Shown: in pieces, positions 23,863 through 59,523 of the stretch
Layout: every line of letters begins with the position of its first letter
Position numbering within the stretch: position 1 is the first letter of the stretch
NCBI GenBank assembly: GCA_964016885.1
Contig: OZ024758.1
Location: forward strand, 32,674,001-32,738,000
Length of the DNA stretch: 64,000 nt
Direction: 5' to 3'
Source: Eledone cirrhosa
Taxonomy: Eukaryota
The notes under the pieces: generated by a model
What the model was told of the DNA's origin: nothing
The model's database searches: none
The model's input: the letters and a program-made list of their open reading frames with translations, nothing else
Program-made: the position numbers and the translations under genes

Positions 23863-23919
23863 TTTAAAAAATAAAAAAAAACTTACTGAGTGAAATTATG
23901 TTGATGATAACTGCTTAGA

Positions 23920-24745
23920 AATGTGCCCGGAGAATGCCAACAAGATTTTCGAATCTTTCAACAAAGCTGACAATAACATCAAATTCAGCATTGAACATTC
24001 CACCGACTCTGGGTCCCTCGCTCTATTTGATTTCAGACTGAACATCTCTGATAGCGGTGAAATCCACACTGATTTCTACTGCAAAGTGGCCAGCAAGGAC
24101 CTGTTTGTGCATTACAAATCTACCCTCCCCAACAGCTCTAAAAGAGGGTACACCTTCTACGAAATGGCTCGCATACGCAACCGATGCAGTGACGCTGCTA
24201 ATAGAGCCACCCATATTAGACGTTTCCACAGGGTACTAGAGATTAATGGCTACCCAGCTTCTCCACCCCACGATGGAACCCCAGACCCAGAGACTAGACT
24301 TAACACAAACAACAGTTGTTTCTTCAAGATCTCAGCGAGGAAACCACCAATGCCATATGTAAAGCCATCAGAAGCGAGGGCCTCAATATCAAACTAGTTC
24401 ACTCTGGACCTTCCCTATGAAGATGCTTCTCCACAAGACAACCCCCCAATGAGGATAACAGATGCACCCTAGCCAATTGCCCTATCTGCAACACTAATTG
24501 TTGCCTACGTACCTATGTAGTATACAGGCAATCTATTTTATATAGACAGCACTATTCAACCATTACATCTCCGTATTAAAGACCATGTTAACATCAACTC
24601 CTCTTCCTTCTCCAAACACATCATCAAATACAGAAACCGGGACAGCATTACTGCCACAGTCTTAACTACCGAACGCAGTGAAGGCACACTAAGAATTAAG
24701 GAAGCCCTCTTAATCAAGCAATTAAAATCTAGGATCAATAATCAA
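23920..24745 (+). mobile_element. Penelope-like element 3' part (RT thumb and GIY-YIG), decayed
   Basis: FNKADNNIKFSIE..LALFDF..TDFYCK..FVHYKS, then CPIC..VVY..YIDSTIQPLHLRIKDH..SKH..LRIKEALLIKQLKSRIN. Confidence 0.85.
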
Positions 24746-24749
24746 ATGT

Positions 24750-25970
24750 CAACAGTGCTTTAAAATCTTGGACAGAAGCCAAAAGAATTTTATATGATGG
24801 TCCTTCAACATTGGAGACAATGGGTCTAATTTTCAGGTCGGGTCCTTCCTTGTGGGTTTTGATCAGATGGTAGAAGTTGGGCAGCCTGCTGTTTCTTGTT
24901 ATGTAATTGTACTTTGAGAGCCTTCGTTGGTCATAGATGTTGGTGGGCTAGGTTGTTGTAGGCCTCTCTGGTAATAATACAAAACTCTTTTCCCTTGTCC
25001 GATGGGATGTACACAAGGTTCCTAGATCTGAGGTTGGTTAGGGTAGCAAGTTGTGGTCTGGAGAGGTTCTGGTGAGTATGTGTATGTTTTTGTAGGATGT
25101 TAGTAATGGTAAGTTTTAACCATGAGAGTTTAGTCTCGAGATCAAGGTTGACAGGTGAAGGGTATTGTAAGTTGAGATGGTAAAGGGGGAATTTTGCTCC
25201 ATTGTGGAAGTCTCGAAGGGTCGATGAAAGACAACGACTTGAGCTTGTAGGCAGCTCTCAATGTTGAGTCTGAGCCTGTCATTGAGTCACTGTGTCAGGA
25301 TCAACTTGGGTCCGAGACGGAGGAGTTGCATTTCATCATCGGAAAGAAAGCTGATTAGATAGGTGTCGTGTTTGTGGTATTCCACATGTTGAACCCCGAC
25401 TCCATTAGTGTTAGAGGTAGTCTGGTAGGGAGGAGTCTTGTCATCACGTTTAGTACTATTCCTAGCTTTAATCTGTGTTTTAAAGGTCCAGTCGAATTTA
25501 GGTTTGAGACGTTCTTTCTCAAATTGGACCCGAGCATGGTAGCACTGGTCAATAGTGGCTGTAGTAGTATGGAGAAGGCTATCGGGTGTTATTCTAAGTA
25601 ACAGCATGGTAGCACTGGTCAATAGTGGCTGTAGCAGGCTATCGGGTGTTATTCTAAGTAACAGCATCAGTTCTGAGATTGTCTGTGTGTGTAGGTGGAG
25701 CTGGTGGTGTAAATTCCGTGTGAATTTCTTTATGCAGGTGTGGTGTATATGTTTGATGAATCCTGAAGAATTGAGGCCTCGAGGGAGGTGGATATTTCTT
25801 ATGGTGTTGGGGATTACATCGTTCTTCAGACAGCGTTAAAGAAAATTAATCTGGCAGCCAATCCTTGCTCATTTCTCCGATAATCTAAAAATTCCCTTTA
25901 CAGTTGCAAACTAGTCCTGGCTCAGGTGTAAAGATAAGAGAGCGTTGTAGGTTGCTTGAAGCATTGTTGA
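24750..25970 (-). mobile_element. Penelope-like element 5' part (N-terminus to RT start), decayed and opposite in orientation
   Basis: FL*RCLKNDVIP, LSDDEMQLLRLGPK and LPNFYHLIKTHKEGPDLKIRPIVS (PLE RT signature). Confidence 0.85.
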
Positions 25971-33985: not shown

Positions 33986-35160
33986 ATTTAGCAGAAAAAT
34001 ATCTAAAAATGGATTTGTTAATTCAAATGTTTATAGTATGTTTATTAGTAAACAGCTCATTGTGAAAATTTGTGGTATTAGGGTAAAGTCTAATTTTTAA
34101 TCTGATACAGAATTTATGAGCTGAAACACTTGCTTGAGGAGGGTTTCTTCATTGAAGACCTTCTGCTATCCAGTTCTCCTGCAAATTTCTGACCAGTCAT
34201 TGTGCTGGTTTGTACTTTTAAAGAATGTTTCGTTAATGTTATTTCATGTGGAACAGGATGTTAAGAGTTAATAACCAAAAAATATGAATCAGAATCACTG
34301 CTATATTTTTACAGCAACCAGACAATCTATTTTAGAGATGAATGGGATGCTACTTCCTTGAAATGAAGCACCTTAATGAGAGAACGGTCTTGTATTGGTA
34401 TCCATTAGAAAGAGGCAAAGGGGTCATCCCAAGATGAACTAGTGACAGACAATTGACAGAGATCTGAAACCAGTCAATGATGTATTGATAGATGCAACTG
34501 AACACGGTCATTAGAGCACTTTGGCTGTCTCATGTGTCTTAAGACATGGGAGCTTCTAAGTAATATCATCATCATCATTTCATTTTACATCCACTTTTTC
34601 CCTGCTTGCACATATACATATGTGAGTCCTGGGTTCAATCGGAGGTAACCACAGTAAGTAAGGTCCTTTGAATGAAACAGTTATAGTACTGTACTCTTTT
34701 ACCTGTTTCAGCCATCTGGGGCACCGCCCTGTAGAAACCATTTCTATATTAAAAAATCTTATATATACACGACATCCCAAGATGAATTGGTTGCAGACAA
34801 TTGACAGAGATTTAAAACCTGTCAACAATAGTTGGAACAATGTATTGATGCAACTGACCATAGTCTAGGTGAGAAGAGAGCCACAACAGCAATACAATAT
34901 ATAAATTTGATTTTCAATTTTGAAAATTAAAACAATGAAATAGAATTCAGTTTCACTTGTCATCAGAGTTCATTTGTATTTATAATTTATTTAGAATTTT
35001 TTAGAATTTTGTCTTCAGAACAGCTTAACCATAATTTGTTGAAAATAAAATGTATTTAAATGTATATATAGTGTATTTTGCAATACACTGTATGCTTAAT
35101 TAAAAGCATTTTGAAGACCATAAGCTATTGTTTTAAAGTAGTGACAATGTCACTTACTTA

Positions 35161-35256
35161 AATTTTCAGCAAACAGGGGAGATAAGCTGACAGAGCTCTG
35201 TTTCATACTTGTTGGTACTTATCAAAGCTCACTACTCTCCCTGTTTGCTGAAAATT
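35161..35256 (-). ncRNA. Type I hammerhead ribozyme, U3-A8 core variant, long stem I
   Basis: Minus strand: AATTTTCAGCAAACAGGGAGAG TAG TGAGCT [TTGATAA] GTAC CAACAA GTAT [GAAA] CAG AGCT CTG [TC] AGCTTA T CTCCCCTGTTTGCTGAAAATT. All three stems pair. Confidence 0.8.
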
Positions 35257-35319
35257 ATGTGTGTTGGATTCTTATAGAATTCCAGTAATAATCAGGAACT
35301 GATTATACAGAGCGGTCAC

Positions 35320-37260
35320 CGGTACGCTAAATTCCTCGCTATACTCATTGCTAATCCTAACTTTGCTGACTGCTTCCTTATACATGGCTTGTACAGCTTT
35401 CACAAACCATTCATCTACTCCTAGTTTTCTAAGAGCCCACCAGATTACAGCACAGGGAACTCTGTCAAAGGCTTTCTCGAGATCGACGAATGCCAGGTAG
35501 AGTGGCTTACTTTTAGCTAGGTACTTTTCCTGCAACTGCCTCACAAGGAAGAGGGCATCAGTGGTGCCTCTTCCTTGCACAAACCCAAATTGCATCTCAT
35601 CTAGTTTCACCCGGCCCCTAAACAACTGTGCTATAACTCTTTCTGTTACTTTCATGACCTGGTCCATCAGCTTTATACCTCTATAGTTTCCTCTATCTAG
35701 TGCATCACATTTACCTTTGTAGCAGTTGACAATGATGCTACTGCACCAATCCTTTGGTATGACACCTTCTAGTATTACCTGGTTAACAATACGTGTGGTT
35801 ATGGTGTGACCTACCGAACCAGATGCCTTCAGCATCTCGGCAGCTATACCCGATGGGCCGGTTGCCTTCCCCATCTTCATATCTTTGATTGCCTTACTTA
35901 TTACGCTGCTGCTGACTTGTACTGCTGGCCCCCTCTATAGGGTCTACTTGGGGTAGAGTCTCTTCTTCCCATGCATTCTCCTCATTTAGTAATCTTTCAT
36001 AATGGCTCTTCCACGCATCATTCTTCTCAGCACTTGAGAGGGCAATCTCACCTTTATCATTCCGGATACACTTCTCTCGAATGACATCACAATTCTCTCT
36101 GACACACTGCCTCACAATCTTGAACACCTGTTTCTGGTCCTCACATTGCAAAACATGCTTGAATTTTCTATCCGCTGCTTCCCTCCTAGCTAAGTATACT
36201 TGTCGCCTAGCTTCCCTCTTGGTCTCTATATGATGTATCCTGCTCCCCTTGTTCTTCCATTCTTTCCATGCTTGTCTCTTGGCCTTAACTGCCTCATCTA
36301 CCTTATTGTTCCACCACCAAGTCACTCTCCTCCTACCTGTGGTCTTACTCCAGCCACAGATCTAATCCGTCACCTCTCGTAAGTTATTTTTTAGGAAATC
36401 CCAGTGATCTCCTACATTGAATGTCTCTATCTGTCCTTCTTTATTGTCATAGGCATTGAGTAAAATATCTTTAAATCTGTTACTGGCTGAGGAGTCTTTC
36501 AGCTTCCAGATCTTTCTTCACCAGGTTTGTCTATTTCTGACTGTGAGGTCGCTGACAACTAAGCTATGTTGGGAGGTACATTCCTCACTAGGGAAGGCTT
36601 CTGTGTTTACGACTGTCCATCTGTCAGGTCCTCTGATGAGGATAAAATCTATCTGACTAGAATGCTCCCCTGATCTATAGGTAATCAGGTGGTTGTCGGG
36701 TTTTTTGAAGTTTGTGTTACATATCGACATGTCATTGGCGTCGCAGAATTCTAGAAGCCTGAATCCTTCTTCATTTCTTGTGCCAACCCCATGGCCTCCA
36801 TGGACTCTATAGAAGCTGTCGCAGTGTTTACCTACGTGTCTGTTAAAATCTTCTGCAATGATTAGGAAGTCATTGTCATTTGTTAGAGCAGTAGTGTGCA
36901 TTAGGGACTCGTAAAACCTATCCTTAAGTTCGTCTGGCAACCCTGATTGGGATGTGTAAGCTGATATTATTGTGGTAATTGTTTTATTCAGGACTAGTCT
37001 GAGTTTAATGGTTCTTGCATTCACCCTGTTCACTGAGATTACCTTATCTACCCACTTGTCAGCTATCGTCATTTCCCACCCAGAAAAATTTGTAGCACTG
37101 ACTTTCTCCTACAAGAACTCTAGCAGACTCTCCTCTCCATCTAGTCTCTTGCACAAAGCATACATCAATTTCCTTTCGCTCTAGCATCTCTACGATTTCT
37201 CCTGCTCTTCCTTTCATTGTGCTTACATTGATGGTACCAACTCGGAGTTTTGGGCATTTG
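35320..37260 (-). mobile_element. Decayed RTE 5' portion (APE and RT N-half); putative 5'UTR to about 37690
   Basis: GTINVSTM, TIISAY, SQIDFILIR, TSQH, NYRGIKL, FVDLEKAFDRV. Close relative of 49125-51849. Confidence 0.92.
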
Positions 37261-37825
37261 TCAACATTCGTGGGAAAGGGTCGATTTTTGCAGGGGTGTG
37301 TCTATGCTTCCTGTCTCTGAATTGAAGCTTCACATGGGTGCTTGGTAGCTCGCGGATTCATATTAATTTATTAAATCCGGGTTGCTCCATTTATTCTCAG
37401 CTTATCCATACATAAAGGTAGAATTCAGGGCTAGAAGAACAGTGGTGGTGGTAATAATGGCAGGGTGTGTTGGGGCTGCAACGGGTGAGGGGAGAGGTAG
37501 GTAGTAGTAGAAATGGCAGAGATTGTTGGGGTTGGTAATAAGTGGGACGGGGATCATGCTGAGGTTTGATTAGTCGAATAGGCTATGGTGGCGTGAGGGG
37601 GTGGGTGGAAGGGAAATTGTAAGATAGGTAGCCATCATTGCCTATAATATCTCATGGCAAAATAAACCGATACGAGTACCTATATTAGACAAGGCGAAAT
37701 GTTAGGATTTCGAAGGGGGTAGACGATTTCGAAGGGGGTAGACGACTTCGTAGAGACAGTGAAATGATAAATACAACAACACTAATAATAATGTAAGAGA
37801 TATATATATACATATATATATATAT

Positions 37826-40768
37826 ATTCAAGAGACCAGGTGGAGGGGTGGGTCTGCTAGGTTCATTGAGGGTAAAAAACGATGTTATAAGCTTTTCTGG
37901 GTGGGAAACGACGATGGGCTGGGTGGAGTAGGAATCATGGTAGCAGAAAAGTGGGCAGATAAGATAATAGACGTAAATAGAGTGAACGACAGAATAATTA
38001 AAATACGACTTGTCCTCAATAGAACTACGGTGACAGTAATATCTGCGTACGCACCCCAATCCGGACTGCCCGGCACTATAAAAGACAGATTCTATGAGAC
38101 ACTGATGCTAACTACCTCCCAAATATCCGACAGTGACTATATAATTATCGCAGGCGACCTAAATGGTCATGTTGGACAACATTGTGACGGCTACGACGAA
38201 ATCCATGGAGGCTATGGGTTTGGTACTAGAAATGAGGAAGGCTCCAGAATCCTGGAATTCTGTGATGCAAATAACCTAACTATCTGTAACACTAACTTCA
38301 AAAAACGTGACAATCACCTGATCACCTATAGATCCGGGGAACACACAAGCCAGGTAGATTATATCCTTACCAGAAGACGTGACAGAGTGTCTGTTGTAAA
38401 CACTAAATCCCTCCCCCATGAAGAATGCACCTCCCAACATAGACTGATAATTAGCGACCTCATAGTCAGGACGAGACGTACTCGACAGCAGAAGAGAACT
38501 ATCCTCAGGAGAAAAATATGGAAGCTAAAGGACCACACAGCCAGGAATAAATTTCAAAGCATATTACTTGATGCTTTCGACAGTAAGGAAGAACATTTAG
38601 AGTCGGACAATATAGAGGGAGAGTGGGAATTTCTGAAAGCAAACCTGCTGTTGGCGACAGACGAAGTCTGTGGCCGGAGCAGGCCTGTAGGCAGGAGGAG
38701 AGTAACATGGTGGTGGAACAGTAAGGTGGAGGGGTCAATTAAGGCCAAAAAGCAGGCTTGGAAAGTATGGCGGGATGGGGGAAGTAGAGAAGACTATCAA
38801 GTGGCCAGGAGGGAAGCTAGGAGACAAGTGTACTTAGCAAGAAGGGAAGCTGAGGAAAGAAAGTTCAAGCATGTTCTACAACGCGATGACCAAAAACGTG
38901 AGGTGTTCAGGATTGCTAGGCAATGCGTCAAGGAAAACCGTGATATTGTCGGGGAGAAGTGTGTACTAAACGACGATGGCACACTTGCCATCACCGACGC
39001 TGATAAGAAGGTAGCTTGGAAGTGTCACTATGAAAGGCTACTAAATGAGGAGAATAAATGGGAGAAAGACAGTCTCCCCCATATCGACCCAATAGAGGGA
39101 CCAGCAGTGTTAGTCGAGGGGAGTATAATAAGTAAGGCAATCAAGGATATGAAGACAGGTAAGGCGGCTGGGCCTTCGGAAATAGTTGCTGAGATGCTGA
39201 AGGCATCTGGCACGGTGGGACACACCATGGTCACCCGCATAGTTAACCAAGTCGTACAGAATGGGGTTGTTCCGAAGGACTGGCATAGCAGCATCATCGT
39301 TAACTGTTATAAGGGTAAAGGAGACGCCCTAGATAGGAGTAACTATAGAGGCATTAAATTAATCGACCAGGTCATGAAGGTCACGGAAAAAGTAATAGCG
39401 CAACTAATCAGAGAGAGAATTGACCTAGATGAAATGCAGTTCGGGTTTGTGTCAGGCAAAAGTACCACAGACGCTCTTTTCATAGTACGACAACTACAGG
39501 AGAAGTACCTAGCTAAAGGTAAACCCCTCTACTTAGCTTTTGTCGACTTGGAGAAAGCCTTCGACAGAGTCCCCTGCTCCATTATCTGGTGGGCTCTTAG
39601 AAAACTAGGCGTTGACGAATGGCTTGTGAGGGCTATACAAGCCATGTATAAAGAAACAGTCAGCAAGGTTAGAATTAACAACGAATATAGTGAAGAGTTT
39701 AGCGTAAAAGTTGGCGTCCATCAGGGCTCTGTTCTCAGCCCACTACTATTTATTATTGCCCTTCAGGCTATAACAGAGGAGTTCAAGACAGGCTGCCCAT
39801 GGGAACTCCTATACGCAGACGACCTGACACTCATAGCGGAATCAATGGCCGAGCTAGAGAAGAAATTCCAAACATGGAAGCACGGCCTAGAGTCAAAAGG
39901 ACTTAAAATTAACCTGGCTAAGACCAAAGTACTAGTTTGTAGGAAAGAAAACAAGGCGGCGGTCCCTTCTGGGAAATGGTCGTGCTCGGTGTGTAGGAAA
40001 GGCGTAGGTAGAAACTCCATTTTATGTCCTAAATGCAAAGTATGGGTGCATAAAAGATGTAGTGGGATCACAGGTAAGCTAACTAAGAACATAGATTTTA
40101 CATGTGGCCGGTGCTCTGGTGCAATAAGTAGCAGCAAGTGCCCACAAAATACTAGCTCTTTCAATTGCGCAGAGGGTTCCATAGAAATAGTGGACAGCTT
40201 CCGTTACCTGGGCGATAAAATCAGCAGTGGGGGAGGGTGCTCTGAAAGTACTGTAGCTAGAGTCAGAACTGGTTGGAAAAAGTTCAGAGAGCTTATACCA
40301 CTATTAGCTGCTAAAGGGTTCTCACTAAAAATGAAAGGCAGGTTGTACGATGCCTGCATACGAACAGCAATGCTGCATGGCAGTGAGACCTGGGCATTGT
40401 GTGCAGAGGATATACGCAGACTAGAGAGGAACGAAGCTTGCATGCTCCGCTGGATGTGTAACAGTAATATACGTGAACGGCAAAGCATAAACGAACTAAG
40501 GAAAAAATTAGAGATAAGAGGGATCAGATGTTGTATACTCGAGAGAAGGCTACATTGGTATGGACACGTGATGCGCATGAAAGTCGATAGCTGTATAACA
40601 AAGTGCAGAGCAATAAAGATAGACGGTAGTCACGGAATAGGCAGACCTAGAAAAACCTGGGACGAGCTGATAAACTCCGACATCACACACTTACACCTCT
40701 CCAAGACAATGTCACTGGACCGAGACCTTTGGCGGTACTCAGTAACAGAGAAGACCCGCCTTACCTAA
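37826..40768 (+). CDS. RTE ORF: APE, RT and PHD-like finger; lacks the N-terminus and start codon
   Basis: Frame open from IQETRW at 37826. SAYAPQ, GDLNGHVG, QVDYIL, SQHR; GVHQGSVLSP, LYADD; CSVC..CPKCKVWVHKRC..CGRC. Confidence 0.9.
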   Translation: MQETRWRGGSARFIEGKKRCYKLFWVGNDDGLGGVGIMVAEKWADKIIDVNRVNDRIIKIRLVLNRTTVTVISAYAPQSGLPGTIKDRFYETLMLTTSQISDSDYIIIAGDLNGHVGQHCDGYDEIHGGYGFGTRNEEGSRILEFCDANNLTICNTNFKKRDNHLITYRSGEHTSQVDYILTRRRDRVSVVNTKSLPHEECTSQHRLIISDLIVRTRRTRQQKRTILRRKIWKLKDHTARNKFQSILLDAFDSKEEHLESDNIEGEWEFLKANLLLATDEVCGRSRPVGRRRVTWWWNSKVEGSIKAKKQAWKVWRDGGSREDYQVARREARRQVYLARREAEERKFKHVLQRDDQKREVFRIARQCVKENRDIVGEKCVLNDDGTLAITDADKKVAWKCHYERLLNEENKWEKDSLPHIDPIEGPAVLVEGSIISKAIKDMKTGKAAGPSEIVAEMLKASGTVGHTMVTRIVNQVVQNGVVPKDWHSSIIVNCYKGKGDALDRSNYRGIKLIDQVMKVTEKVIAQLIRERIDLDEMQFGFVSGKSTTDALFIVRQLQEKYLAKGKPLYLAFVDLEKAFDRVPCSIIWWALRKLGVDEWLVRAIQAMYKETVSKVRINNEYSEEFSVKVGVHQGSVLSPLLFIIALQAITEEFKTGCPWELLYADDLTLIAESMAELEKKFQTWKHGLESKGLKINLAKTKVLVCRKENKAAVPSGKWSCSVCRKGVGRNSILCPKCKVWVHKRCSGITGKLTKNIDFTCGRCSGAISSSKCPQNTSSFNCAEGSIEIVDSFRYLGDKISSGGGCSESTVARVRTGWKKFRELIPLLAAKGFSLKMKGRLYDACIRTAMLHGSETWALCAEDIRRLERNEACMLRWMCNSNIRERQSINELRKKLEIRGIRCCILERRLHWYGHVMRMKVDSCITKCRAIKIDGSHGIGRPRKTWDELINSDITHLHLSKTMSLDRDLWRYSVTEKTRLT

Positions 40769-49106: not shown

Positions 49107-49124
49107 TATTTTAATAAATATATA

Positions 49125-51845
49125 AAAACCCGACAACCACCTGATCAACTATAGATCAGGGGAGCACTCCAGTCAGATAGATTTTATCCTCATCAGAGGA
49201 CGTGACAGATGGACGGTCGTAAACACAAAAGCCTTCCCTAGTGAGGAATGTACATCCCAACATAGCTTAGTTGTCAGCGACCTCACGGTCAGAACTAGAT
49301 GAACCTGGAAACAGAGGCCAACCTGGAGAAGAAAGATCTGGAAGCTGAAAGTCCCCTCAACCAGTAACAGATTTAAAGATATTTTACTCAACGCCTACGA
49401 CAGTAAAGAAGAACAGATAGAGACATTCAATGTAGAAGAGAACTGAGAGTTCCTAAAAAATAATTTACTAGAGGCGACAGATGAGGTCTGTGGTTGGAGT
49501 AAGACCTCAAGCAGGAGGAGAGTGACTTGGTGGTGGAACAATAAGGTAGATGAAGCAGTTAAGGCCAAGAGACAGGCATGGAAAGAATGGAAGAACGGGG
49601 AGAGCAGGGTACATTACATAGAGACCAAGAGGGAAGCTAGGCGACAAGTATACTTAGCTAGGAGGGAAGCAGAGGATAGAAAATTCAAGCATGTTTTGCA
49701 ACGTCAGGACCAGAAACAGGAGGTGTTCAAGATTGCGAGGCAGTGTGTCAGAGATAGTTGTGATGTCATTGGAGAGAAGTGTATCCGGAATGATAAAGGT
49801 GAGCTTGCCCTCACAAGTGCTGAGAAGAAAGATGCATGGAAGAGTCATTATGATAGATTACTAAATGAGGAGAATGCATGGGAAGAAGAGACCCTACCCC
49901 AAGTAGACCCTATAGAGGGGCCAGCAGTACAAGTCAGCAGCAACGTAGTAAGTAAGGCAATCAAAGATATGAAGATGGGGAAGGCAACCGGTCCATCGGG
50001 TATAGCTGCTGAGATGCTGAAGGCATCTGGGTCTGTAGGTCACACTATAACCACACGTATTGTTAACCAGGTAATACTAGAAGGTGTCATACCAAAAGAT
50101 TGGTGCAGTAGCATCATTGTCAACTGCTACAAAGGTAAAGGTGATGCACTAGATAGAGGAAACTATACAGGTATAAAGTTGATGGACCAGGTCATGAAAG
50201 TAACAGAAAGAGTTATAGCACAGTTGATTAGGGACCGGGTGAAAATAGACGAGATGCAATTTGGGTTTGTACCAGGAAGGGGCACCACTGATACCCTCTT
50301 CCTTGTGAGGCAGTTACAGGAAAAGTACCTAGCTAAAAGTAAGCCACTCTACTTGGCATTTGTCGACCTTGAGAAAGCCTTTGACAGAGTTCCACGTGCT
50401 ATAATCTGGTGGGCTCTTAGAAAACTAGGAGTAGATGAATGGTTTGTGAAAGCTGTACAAGCCATGTATAGGGGAGCAGTCAGCAAAGTTAGGATTAGCA
50501 ATGAGTATAGCGAGGAATTTAGCGTACAGGTTGGGGTCCACCAGGGCTCTGTTCTTAGCCCCCTCCTGTTCATCATAGTCCTGCAGGCAATAACGGAGGA
50601 GTTTAAGACCGGATGCCCATGGGAACTCCTGTATGCTGATGACCTCACACTCATAGCTGAATCTATGGTAGAACTAGAGAATAAATTCCAAACTTGGAAG
50701 CAAGGACTAAAAAGAAAGGGTCTCAAAGTCAACATGACAAAGACTAAGGTCCTTGTAAGTAGGCGAGAAAACAGAACCCAGATCCCCTCAGGGAAATGGC
50801 CTTGTTCAGTATGTAGGAAAGGTGTAGGTAGGAACTCCATTCTCTGCCCCAAATGCAAACAATGGGTACACAGGAGATGTAGCGGGATCTCAGGAAGCTT
50901 AATTAAGAATGTAGGCTTCACATGCAGCAGCAAGCAGCAAACAGCCACAGGAAACAAGTACCACCAATCTCTGGGAGGGCTCTGTAGAAACAGTAGACAG
51001 CTTCTGCTACCTAGGTGACCGAATTAGCAGCGGAGGTGGGTGTTCAGAAAGTACAATAACTAGGGTAAGAACGGGATGGAAGAAGTTTAGGGAACTACTA
51101 CCACTGCTAGCTGCAAAAGGCTTCTCCCTCAGAATGAAAGGCAGACTGTAGTGAGACCTGGGCGCTGAAGGTGGAAGACTTACGTAGATTAGAGAGAAAC
51201 GAAGCCTGCATGCTCCGATGGATGTGTAATAGTAATATACGTGAACGACAAAGCATAAATGAATTGAGAGAGAGACTGAGCATAAGAGGAATCAAAGGCT
51301 GTGTGCAGGAGAGGTGGTTGCGCTGGTATGGACATGTGATGCGTATGAAGGATGACAGCTGCATAAAAAGGTGCAGAGCATGAGAAGTCGATGGAAACCG
51401 TGGAGTGGGGAGACCCAAGATGACCTGGGATGAGGTGATAAAAGCTGACCTTACCCAATTACACCTCTCAAAGGCGATGACACACGACCGTGACCACTGG
51501 CGTCATGCAGTAATTCAGAGTACCCAACCTCCCATGGGTACAAGCTGAAGCATATAGACAATATGCCCCCACACCCCCACTGCAAGGTGGTCGTGGAGGT
51601 GCCACGGCAAAAAAGCACCCAGCCCACACTGTAAAGTGGACGTGTAGGCGCCACGAAAAAGCACCCAGCACTCACTGTAAATGAGGTTGGTGTTAGGAAG
51701 GGCATCCGGCTGTAGAAATCAAGCCAAATCAGTTCCTGTATGTGCAAGGCATGGTCAGCCGACCAGACACTGCCCACAACAGGACAACCCGTCTAACCCA
51801 TGCTAGCGTGGAAGAACGGACGTAAAACGGTGATGATGATGATGA

Positions 51846-59456: not shown

Positions 59457-59523
59457 TATTTTATCTGATGAGGACGTACTGTTGAACTTAATTCAGTACC
59501 TCTGAAATATGTATAATAAAATA
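59457..59523 (+). ncRNA. Minimal type I hammerhead ribozyme (PLE type)
   Basis: TATTTTAT [CTGATGA] GGACGTACTG TTGAACTTAATT CAGTACCTCT [GAAA] T ATGT A[TA] ATAAAATA. Confidence 0.75.

Follow-up and report, generated by a model that had tools for sequence, protein, structure and literature searches.

The closest described systems are the non-LTR retrozymes, the pseudo-LTRs of Penelope-like elements (PLEs) and a group of natural hammerhead ribozymes with a variant core. As reported by Craig et al. (2021, 10.1101/2021.04.23.441226), PLE insertions are partial tandems with an inverted, 5'-truncated arm and a tail of 30-40 bp on one end, and they use (TA)n targets; this signature of partial tandem, inverted arm and tail is described as common to PLEs and unique to them (10.1101/2021.04.23.441226; PMC11167929). 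For a PLE protein, Frangieh et al. (2024, PMC11167929) report that each strand of an AT-rich DNA is cut and extended and that synthesis starts at two adjacent internal sites of the RNA, the tail being the stretch between them. That retrozymes make use of PLE proteins has so far been proposed, in the retrozyme and PLE literature at hand, from co-occurrence and sequence similarity. Cleavage is described as dimer-dependent in axolotl retrozymes (PMC7229834) and as protein-assisted for a PLE hammerhead (PMC11167929), and eight of nine Xenopus retrozyme dimers are reported to stay uncleaved in vitro. As for the core, several natural hammerheads have U3-A8 by covariation in place of the C3-G8 pair, and such ribozymes are active in vitro according to Perreault et al. 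(2011, PMC3088659); about 1300 U3-A8 motifs are reported from the Cercyon PLEs of Schistosoma mansoni (Cervera and de la Pena, 2014, PMC4209133).

The locus analysed here lies on the minus strand of a 64-kb window, by which we mean the whole stretch of 64,000 nucleotides. Positions 35161..35256 form a type I hammerhead motif with an extended stem I (6 + 3 + 18 bp), as judged by sequence, structure evaluation and covariation. Its outer helix is a perfect 18-bp duplex (35256-35239 with 35178-35161, the 5' arm being 35239..35256), followed inwards by a bulged A, 3 bp and an internal loop (3x1) in which the lone U, at 35182, takes hammerhead position 1.7. Stem I proper pairs TGAGCT (35231-35226) with AGCTTA (35188-35183). 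The core TTGATAA (35225-35219) reads U3 U4 G5 A6 U7 A8 A9, with U3 at 35225 and A8 at 35220; stem II with its loop occupies 35218-35205 (GTAC/GTAT, loop 2 CAACAA) and is followed by GAA at 35204-35202. Stem III (35201-35190) is a perfect 12-nt palindrome, which gives 4 bp and a tetraloop in a monomer and 12 bp when two units come together. By hammerhead numbering, C17 is 35189 and the predicted cleavage site follows GUC, at 35189/35188. The sequence characters of a type I hammerhead are present, namely a (C/U)UGAN(G/A)A core, GAAA, UH, three stems and an open stem I; the elements that the initial annotation had placed in register on the minus strand are found at its coordinates, and its type I assignment is borne out by sequence and structure evaluation alike. 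Stem II needs a qualification, as the annotated GTAC/GTAT is correct for this copy and wrong for the family, in which it is GTAC/GTAC: at position 35205 the family letter C11.1 has become U, giving a G-U wobble, the GTAT half is private to a few copies, and in two contig sets about 92% of the depth shows the family letter. The Rfam scan found no hammerhead match in the window, nor any on 35000-35400 up to E=10, which was predicted beforehand and is expected for a variant core. Two more hammerhead-like motifs in the window, at 59465 (plus strand) and 61224 (minus strand), have C3-G8 cores and a long AT-rich stem I; they are related to motifs in loci L086, L089 and L097 and probably belong to another repeat family.

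The motif lies in a copy of a non-coding repeat unit of about 319 nt with thousands of relatives genome-wide, and we consider it probable that this family is a non-autonomous non-LTR retrozyme inserted by PLE proteins, of which the window holds a truncated copy. The unit (319 nt, GC 33.5%) contains one type I hammerhead and no ORF. The hammerhead had been annotated as an orphan, a description that does not survive the search of its own genome (3.0 Gb): there were 1749 first-look candidates, the 40 scored gave 45 matches, with identities of 95-100% among the full-length ones, and the exact 27-letter core pattern occurs at 618 places (control, 0). The copy in the window (35050..35325, minus strand), the only one in the 64 kb, is 5'-truncated and tail-less, spans unit positions 17-292 of about 319 and is 95.7% identical over 276 nt to a natural unit taken from locus L010. 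When that unit was mapped onto 50 loci, head-to-tail partial tandems with 320-to-1 junctions appeared together with inverted arms set back to back, and the copies sit in (TA)n tracts as partial tandems and inverted pairs. Head-to-tail arrays with two or more hammerheads occur in L034, L038 and L031, a property of the family, the window copy being a partial monomer. Several subfamilies have evolved with an identical closed unit layout.

The way in which copies end points to their mode of insertion. They stop at two fixed 3' points, unit positions of about 294 and 320, which are 26 nt apart and some 140 and 168 nt beyond the predicted hammerhead cut site; the window copy ends at the short one, and (TA)n follows most terminal long ends. 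Of the 40 two-ended insertions among 88 clusters, from loci partly picked for carrying two cores, 39 pair a long end with a short one. In a second, independent set of 85 clusters, 18 of 22 two-ended insertions show this pairing and the other 4 have like ends, so that both samples pooled hold one of each end in 57 of 62. The arms run through the unit junction, which implies that the template was a multimer or a circle. Partial tandems with an inverted 5'-truncated arm, a tail on one end and AT-rich or (TA)n targets are thus all found in this family, and the same end signature is present in ORF-bearing PLEs of this genome. There is good evidence in these sequences, then, that the family was inserted in the manner of PLEs.

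Several further features of the unit and its copies deserve mention in their own right. The largest array (L031:1245-9168) covers 7.9 kb with about 20 units and a higher-order repeat of about 1.16 kb; some of its units lack a whole hammerhead hairpin, and contigs contain skips of about 105 nt over the hairpin that are similar to these units. Locus L142:1-3334 is a 1.17-kb inverted duplication, 99.3% identical, with a subfamily-C insertion in each arm. The pair L138/L146, which carries a damaged hammerhead, was considered as a case of ribozyme-free transposition and rejected, being a segmental duplication. A splice-donor-like hexamer, a candidate intron signal, lies just past the outer helix (35152-35157, minus strand; strict motif in 54 of 98 copies), and an acceptor-like TTTCAG is found inside the tail, at unit position of about 302, in 133 of 159 ends. 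Together they would bound a putative intron of about 120 nt that holds the short start site; a search for spliced, intron-less DNA copies of the unit gave 0 matches, a result that neither supports nor excludes the intron.

Whether the ribozyme still works can be approached through its conservation. Copies were sampled without bias towards the core by anchoring on a 19-nt upstream motif (35265..35283, minus strand), which is conserved in all subfamilies and matched 2211 places in the genome under a suffix constraint; from the first 100 places listed, 90 were taken and yielded 94 anchored copies, 10 having been dropped by eye as deleted, truncated, duplicate or oversized. Positions 4, 5, 6, 9, 13, 14, 15.1 and 16.1 are conserved in 88 to 94 of the 94 copies, position 7 varies freely, and position 17 is G in two. 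In a 36-row alignment, both partners change in 11 of 34 pairs, and percentage paired and covariation score beat 500 of 500 shuffles and all slid controls, while the count of double-change pairs is not above the column shuffle (195 of 500); most of the covariation changes are single events between subfamilies, so the independent events are few. The outer helix shows compensatory changes among subfamilies at 6 pairs, its outermost 2 pairs being specific to the window subfamily. This covariation between subfamilies indicates that the long stem has been selected.

Folding predictions give a less simple picture. The 96-mer has a free fold of -46.1 kcal/mol (z -9.5; none of 200 shuffles matched it), and this minimum-energy fold is not the hammerhead, as stem III is there paired with the 5' strand of stem I together with U3-U4-G5; in a model that ignores tertiary contacts, the hammerhead fold of the window monomer lies 7.6 kcal/mol above the alternative. 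The predicted gap is 4.8-8.8 kcal/mol in four of five copies of the window subfamily, 0.7-2.5 kcal/mol in 8 of 8 copies of subfamily C and 5.0-10.1 kcal/mol in the 5 parsed copies of subfamily B, 7 of the 35 copies in this comparison being unparsed and without a value. In the natural tandem L038, used in place of the L034 dimer because one unit of the latter is mutated, the double hammerhead is 6.2 kcal/mol more stable than two monomers and still stands 4.8 kcal/mol above the free fold. The unit RNA as a whole is highly self-paired (circular fold z -8.0; with the hammerhead left out, z -5.3; 60 shuffles in either case). With the monomer predicted to be misfolded by some 7 kcal/mol, cleavage is likely to be dimer- or protein-assisted.

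This misfolding also feeds the rival account that survives best, in which the family is mobilised by PLEs and the hammerhead of the window subfamily no longer cleaves, having been kept only as an RNA fold or a protein-binding site. Hammerhead mutants are reported to have no effect on PLE insertion in vitro (PMC11167929), making the ribozyme dispensable there, and some array units without a whole hairpin and two unlinked C3-A8 copies agree with such a loss. We nevertheless hold this account to be unlikely, since the stems covary across subfamilies in which catalytic positions are fixed, positions 3 and 8 switch together and position 17 avoids G; the window subfamily itself has retained the canonical G10.1-C11.1 pair and U1.7. 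From this pattern of conservation it seems likely that the hammerhead cleaves in some form.

A second rival concerns the origin of the units, which might be nothing but the solo pseudo-LTRs and 5'-truncated ends that an autonomous PLE outside our sample has left. Their end signature is that of PLEs, most PLE insertions are 5'-truncated, and the helper search, a GIY-YIG search with 20 long-ORF regions, sampled 7 PLE proteins from a genome rich in PLEs, with 10597 GIY-YIG candidates. Against this, past the long end the sequence leads back into the unit start or into AT-rich target in 90 of 90 listed ends, and never into an ORF. A tblastn search with the 7 PLE proteins of this genome detected no ORF upstream and on the same strand of the unit in 79 loci and the window, in agreement with the annotation's statement that no PLE ORF is adjacent; the four hits within the 79 loci are distant, downstream or marginal, and the same proteins detected no upstream PLE ORF in 80 further short loci. 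The mark of an autonomous PLE, an ORF with RT plus GIY-YIG between pseudo-LTRs, was accordingly absent from these loci. Tandem arrays without an ORF exist (L031), and the closed unit has been kept across several subfamilies. We regard the pseudo-LTR origin as improbable and keep to the retrozyme reading. Local alignment of the unit with 7 other hammerhead-bearing regions gave none above shuffles (z -0.9 to 0.6), and a likeness by eye of the tail to two PLE families was likewise not above shuffles. No helper PLE emerged from these comparisons.

The PLEs met in this search merit a brief description. Locus L081:4452-9431 (minus strand) is a repeat-ORF-repeat PLE with RT and GIY-YIG and a CxxxxCxxC linker, which the motif given in 10.1101/2021.04.23.441226 would assign to the Neptune/Nematis kind. 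In its family (also in L083, L086, L090 and L092) both terminal repeats carry a minimal U3-A8 hammerhead, of which a 38-letter motif has 6009 exact genome copies, and the two 3' ends are separated by about 65 nt; by eye, a splice-donor-like sequence overlaps the GUA cleavage triplet, and an acceptor-like site follows about 110 nt farther downstream. In a second PLE family (L052, L099, L075 and others) the core letters equal those of the window motif and a U-U closes stem II; in L052 a unit of a sister subfamily is inserted in (TA)n at the PLE's 3' end. The window itself contains a broken PLE fragment (23897-24875) with 38% identity to the L091 protein (E 6e-44). At L091:8068-9553 lie four tandem units of about 490 nt, each with a C3-G8 hammerhead, as a further retrozyme-like family, and at least three more hammerhead repeat families occur (L061/L093, L087/L088 and L082/L086/L090).

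The same counts that describe the core dispose of a third rival, in which the motif is a lone orphan, a ribozyme co-opted by the host or a C3-G8 copy in decay. When any letter is allowed at positions 3 and 8, the genome has 633 matches, 618 of them U3-A8, and the C3-G8 form (CTGATGA) has 0 genome matches in the same neighbour context; U3-A8 is therefore the family state, which answers the annotation's question whether TTGATAA is the consensus, and its alternative of a decayed CTGATGA copy falls. The exceptions, about 2%, fit ordinary decay. The finding of one copy only in the window is what speaks for a lone ribozyme, against hundreds of near-identical copies with an identical core that refute such an origin; the window copy, truncated, drifting neutrally and with a private change in stem II, makes the co-option suggested in the annotation implausible, and we give this rival almost no weight.

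The U3-A8 core is a known variant and no surprise, being published and common in the PLEs of this genome, where two ORF-bearing families carry it. A sister subfamily found by chance beside the PLE in L052 is about 80% identical and C3-G8, and the C3-G8 sister subfamilies show compensatory changes in stems I and II. The proposal that U3-A8 is the compensatory swap of C3-G8 is upheld. Among the 94 anchored copies the 3-8 states are C-G in 57, U-A in 26, C-A in 6, U-G in 1, A-G in 1 and gapped in 3, and the pair is Watson-Crick (C-G or U-A) in 83 of 91 ungapped copies; C3-A8 is found in two unlinked copies. A tree of 90 rows (the 94 minus 8 truncated plus 4 references), with positions 3 and 8 masked and rooted at the midpoint only, places the U3-A8 copies in two supported groups, each within C3-G8 relatives. 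Two 3-8 changes are needed in 200 of 200 bootstrap trees, and a single origin is rejected with p-AU 4.8e-10 on this midpoint-rooted tree, which recombination between subfamilies could mislead; the two groups also have different stems around the core. On these sequences, U3-A8 appears to have arisen twice within the family, and C3-G8 would have changed to U3-A8 once in the founder of the window subfamily and separately in a second lineage. That U3-A8 relieves misfolding in general is not supported as a rule, as ORF-bearing PLEs carry U3-A8 without such a competing helix and the C3-G8 subfamily B is predicted to be equally misfolded; AT-biased drift explains U3-A8 equally well.

The neighbourhood of the window copy has its own history. 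An RTE-type LINE fragment without its 3' half (35318..37151, minus strand; RVT_1, E 1e-12) abuts the unit as a neighbour and not as a part of the element; the approximately 60 nt that the annotation saw between the RTE break and the motif are part of the repeat unit, which adjoins the RTE directly. Comparison with a second RTE copy (49124-50531) locates the junction at 35318..35323, with 5-of-6 microhomology. The RTE break coincides exactly with the unit edge, and the 3' half of the RTE was not found past the element. The exact break, the microhomology and the missing 3' half would be accounted for by a deletion that also took the other arm: probably, the window copy is the tail-less arm, its partner and the RTE 3' half having been lost by microhomology-mediated deletion. 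That the motif belongs to the RTE LINE or to an RTE-dependent SINE, as its position beside the fragment on the same strand might suggest, has a negligible probability, given that the second RTE copy runs on into normal RT sequence at the break point, only 3 of 29 other loci have a match to the RTE flank of the window near the unit and none has it at this junction, and the 3' ends of the unit are fixed internal sites with no RTE-like tail. The repeat search inside the window was swamped by microsatellites and yielded the second RTE copy only; the window also holds an open RTE-type frame of 1001 codons (37763-40768, plus strand), about 70% identical to the broken RTE at the DNA level.

For the retrozyme family we envisage the following course of events. 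Tandem copies would be transcribed, and the hammerhead would cut after GUC, mostly as a double hammerhead formed through the palindromic stem III or with the help of a protein; cleavage would yield unit-length RNA, which may circularise. A PLE reverse transcriptase-endonuclease would then nick both strands of a (TA)n target, and copying would begin at the two internal sites, some 140 and 168 nt downstream of the cut. By continuing across the unit junction it would produce arms longer than one unit, set back to back, with a single tail at one of the two ends. We tentatively extend this to a joint reading, possible but on balance doubtful: the insertions would be a genomic record of PLE two-strand priming from two fixed sites on circular or multimeric RNA, one per end, the monomer would be held off by the helix between core and stem III, and the 3-8 pair would have flipped twice under selection, here offsetting a longer inhibitory helix (computed 2.7 kcal/mol).

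Altogether, the strict pattern of one tail per insertion constitutes positive evidence, from the insertions themselves, for the mobilisation of retrozymes by PLEs, and the insertion ends name two start sites that can be tested with the in vitro assay already available for PLEs. The family also supplies matched natural C3-G8 and U3-A8 putative ribozymes, and it illustrates that CUGANGA searches and Rfam overlook thousands of hammerheads in this genome. The annotation's inference of an undescribed retrozyme or PLE family proved right, in that the family has the features of a retrozyme and our literature search, supplements and repeat libraries aside, found no description of it; the word 'hammerhead' is absent from the main text of PMC13282606.

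Set beside the systems with which we began, the family has the testable properties of a non-LTR retrozyme, is not an autonomous PLE and is no new kind of system. It shares with non-LTR retrozymes, as these are described in PMC7229834 and 10.64898/2026.07.22.740005, a non-coding, low-GC, self-paired unit of about 300 nt with one type I hammerhead, the occurrence as monomers, dimers and arrays, the palindromic stem III and the co-occurrence with PLEs; its 319 nt and 33.5% GC fall within the range of about 170-400 nt and the low GC given in PMC7229834, and the U-U at the base of stem II of axolotl HHR_Amex2 recurs in one sister subfamily. RNA circles and cleavage are putative features of this family. 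The family differs from the retrozymes so described in its U3-A8 core in two lineages, in being mostly dispersed partial tandems with inverted arms, and in the PLE tail asymmetry, which the available text of PMC7229834 and 10.64898/2026.07.22.740005 does not report for retrozymes. With PLE pseudo-LTRs, as portrayed in PMC4209133, Craig et al. (2021) and PMC11167929, it has in common a sense-strand hammerhead upstream of fixed 3' ends, a partial tandem with an inverted arm, a tail on one end, (TA)n targets and the U3-A8 variant, whereas the unit is without an RT/GIY-YIG ORF, the tail measures 26 nt instead of the 30-40 reported for PLEs, and the minimal PLE hammerhead is replaced by one with a canonical 6-bp stem I, a 4-bp stem II and a real stem III. 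U3-A8 cores and PLE-linked retrozymes have already been published, so that what is added here is a retrozyme with asymmetric tails and a 3-8 pair that has flipped twice in nature. The covariation from C3-G8 to U3-A8 is the one reported for natural hammerheads (PMC3088659); compared with the examples given there, the swap is here placed on a tree, inside one repeat family, twice, and each time beside C3-G8 relatives.
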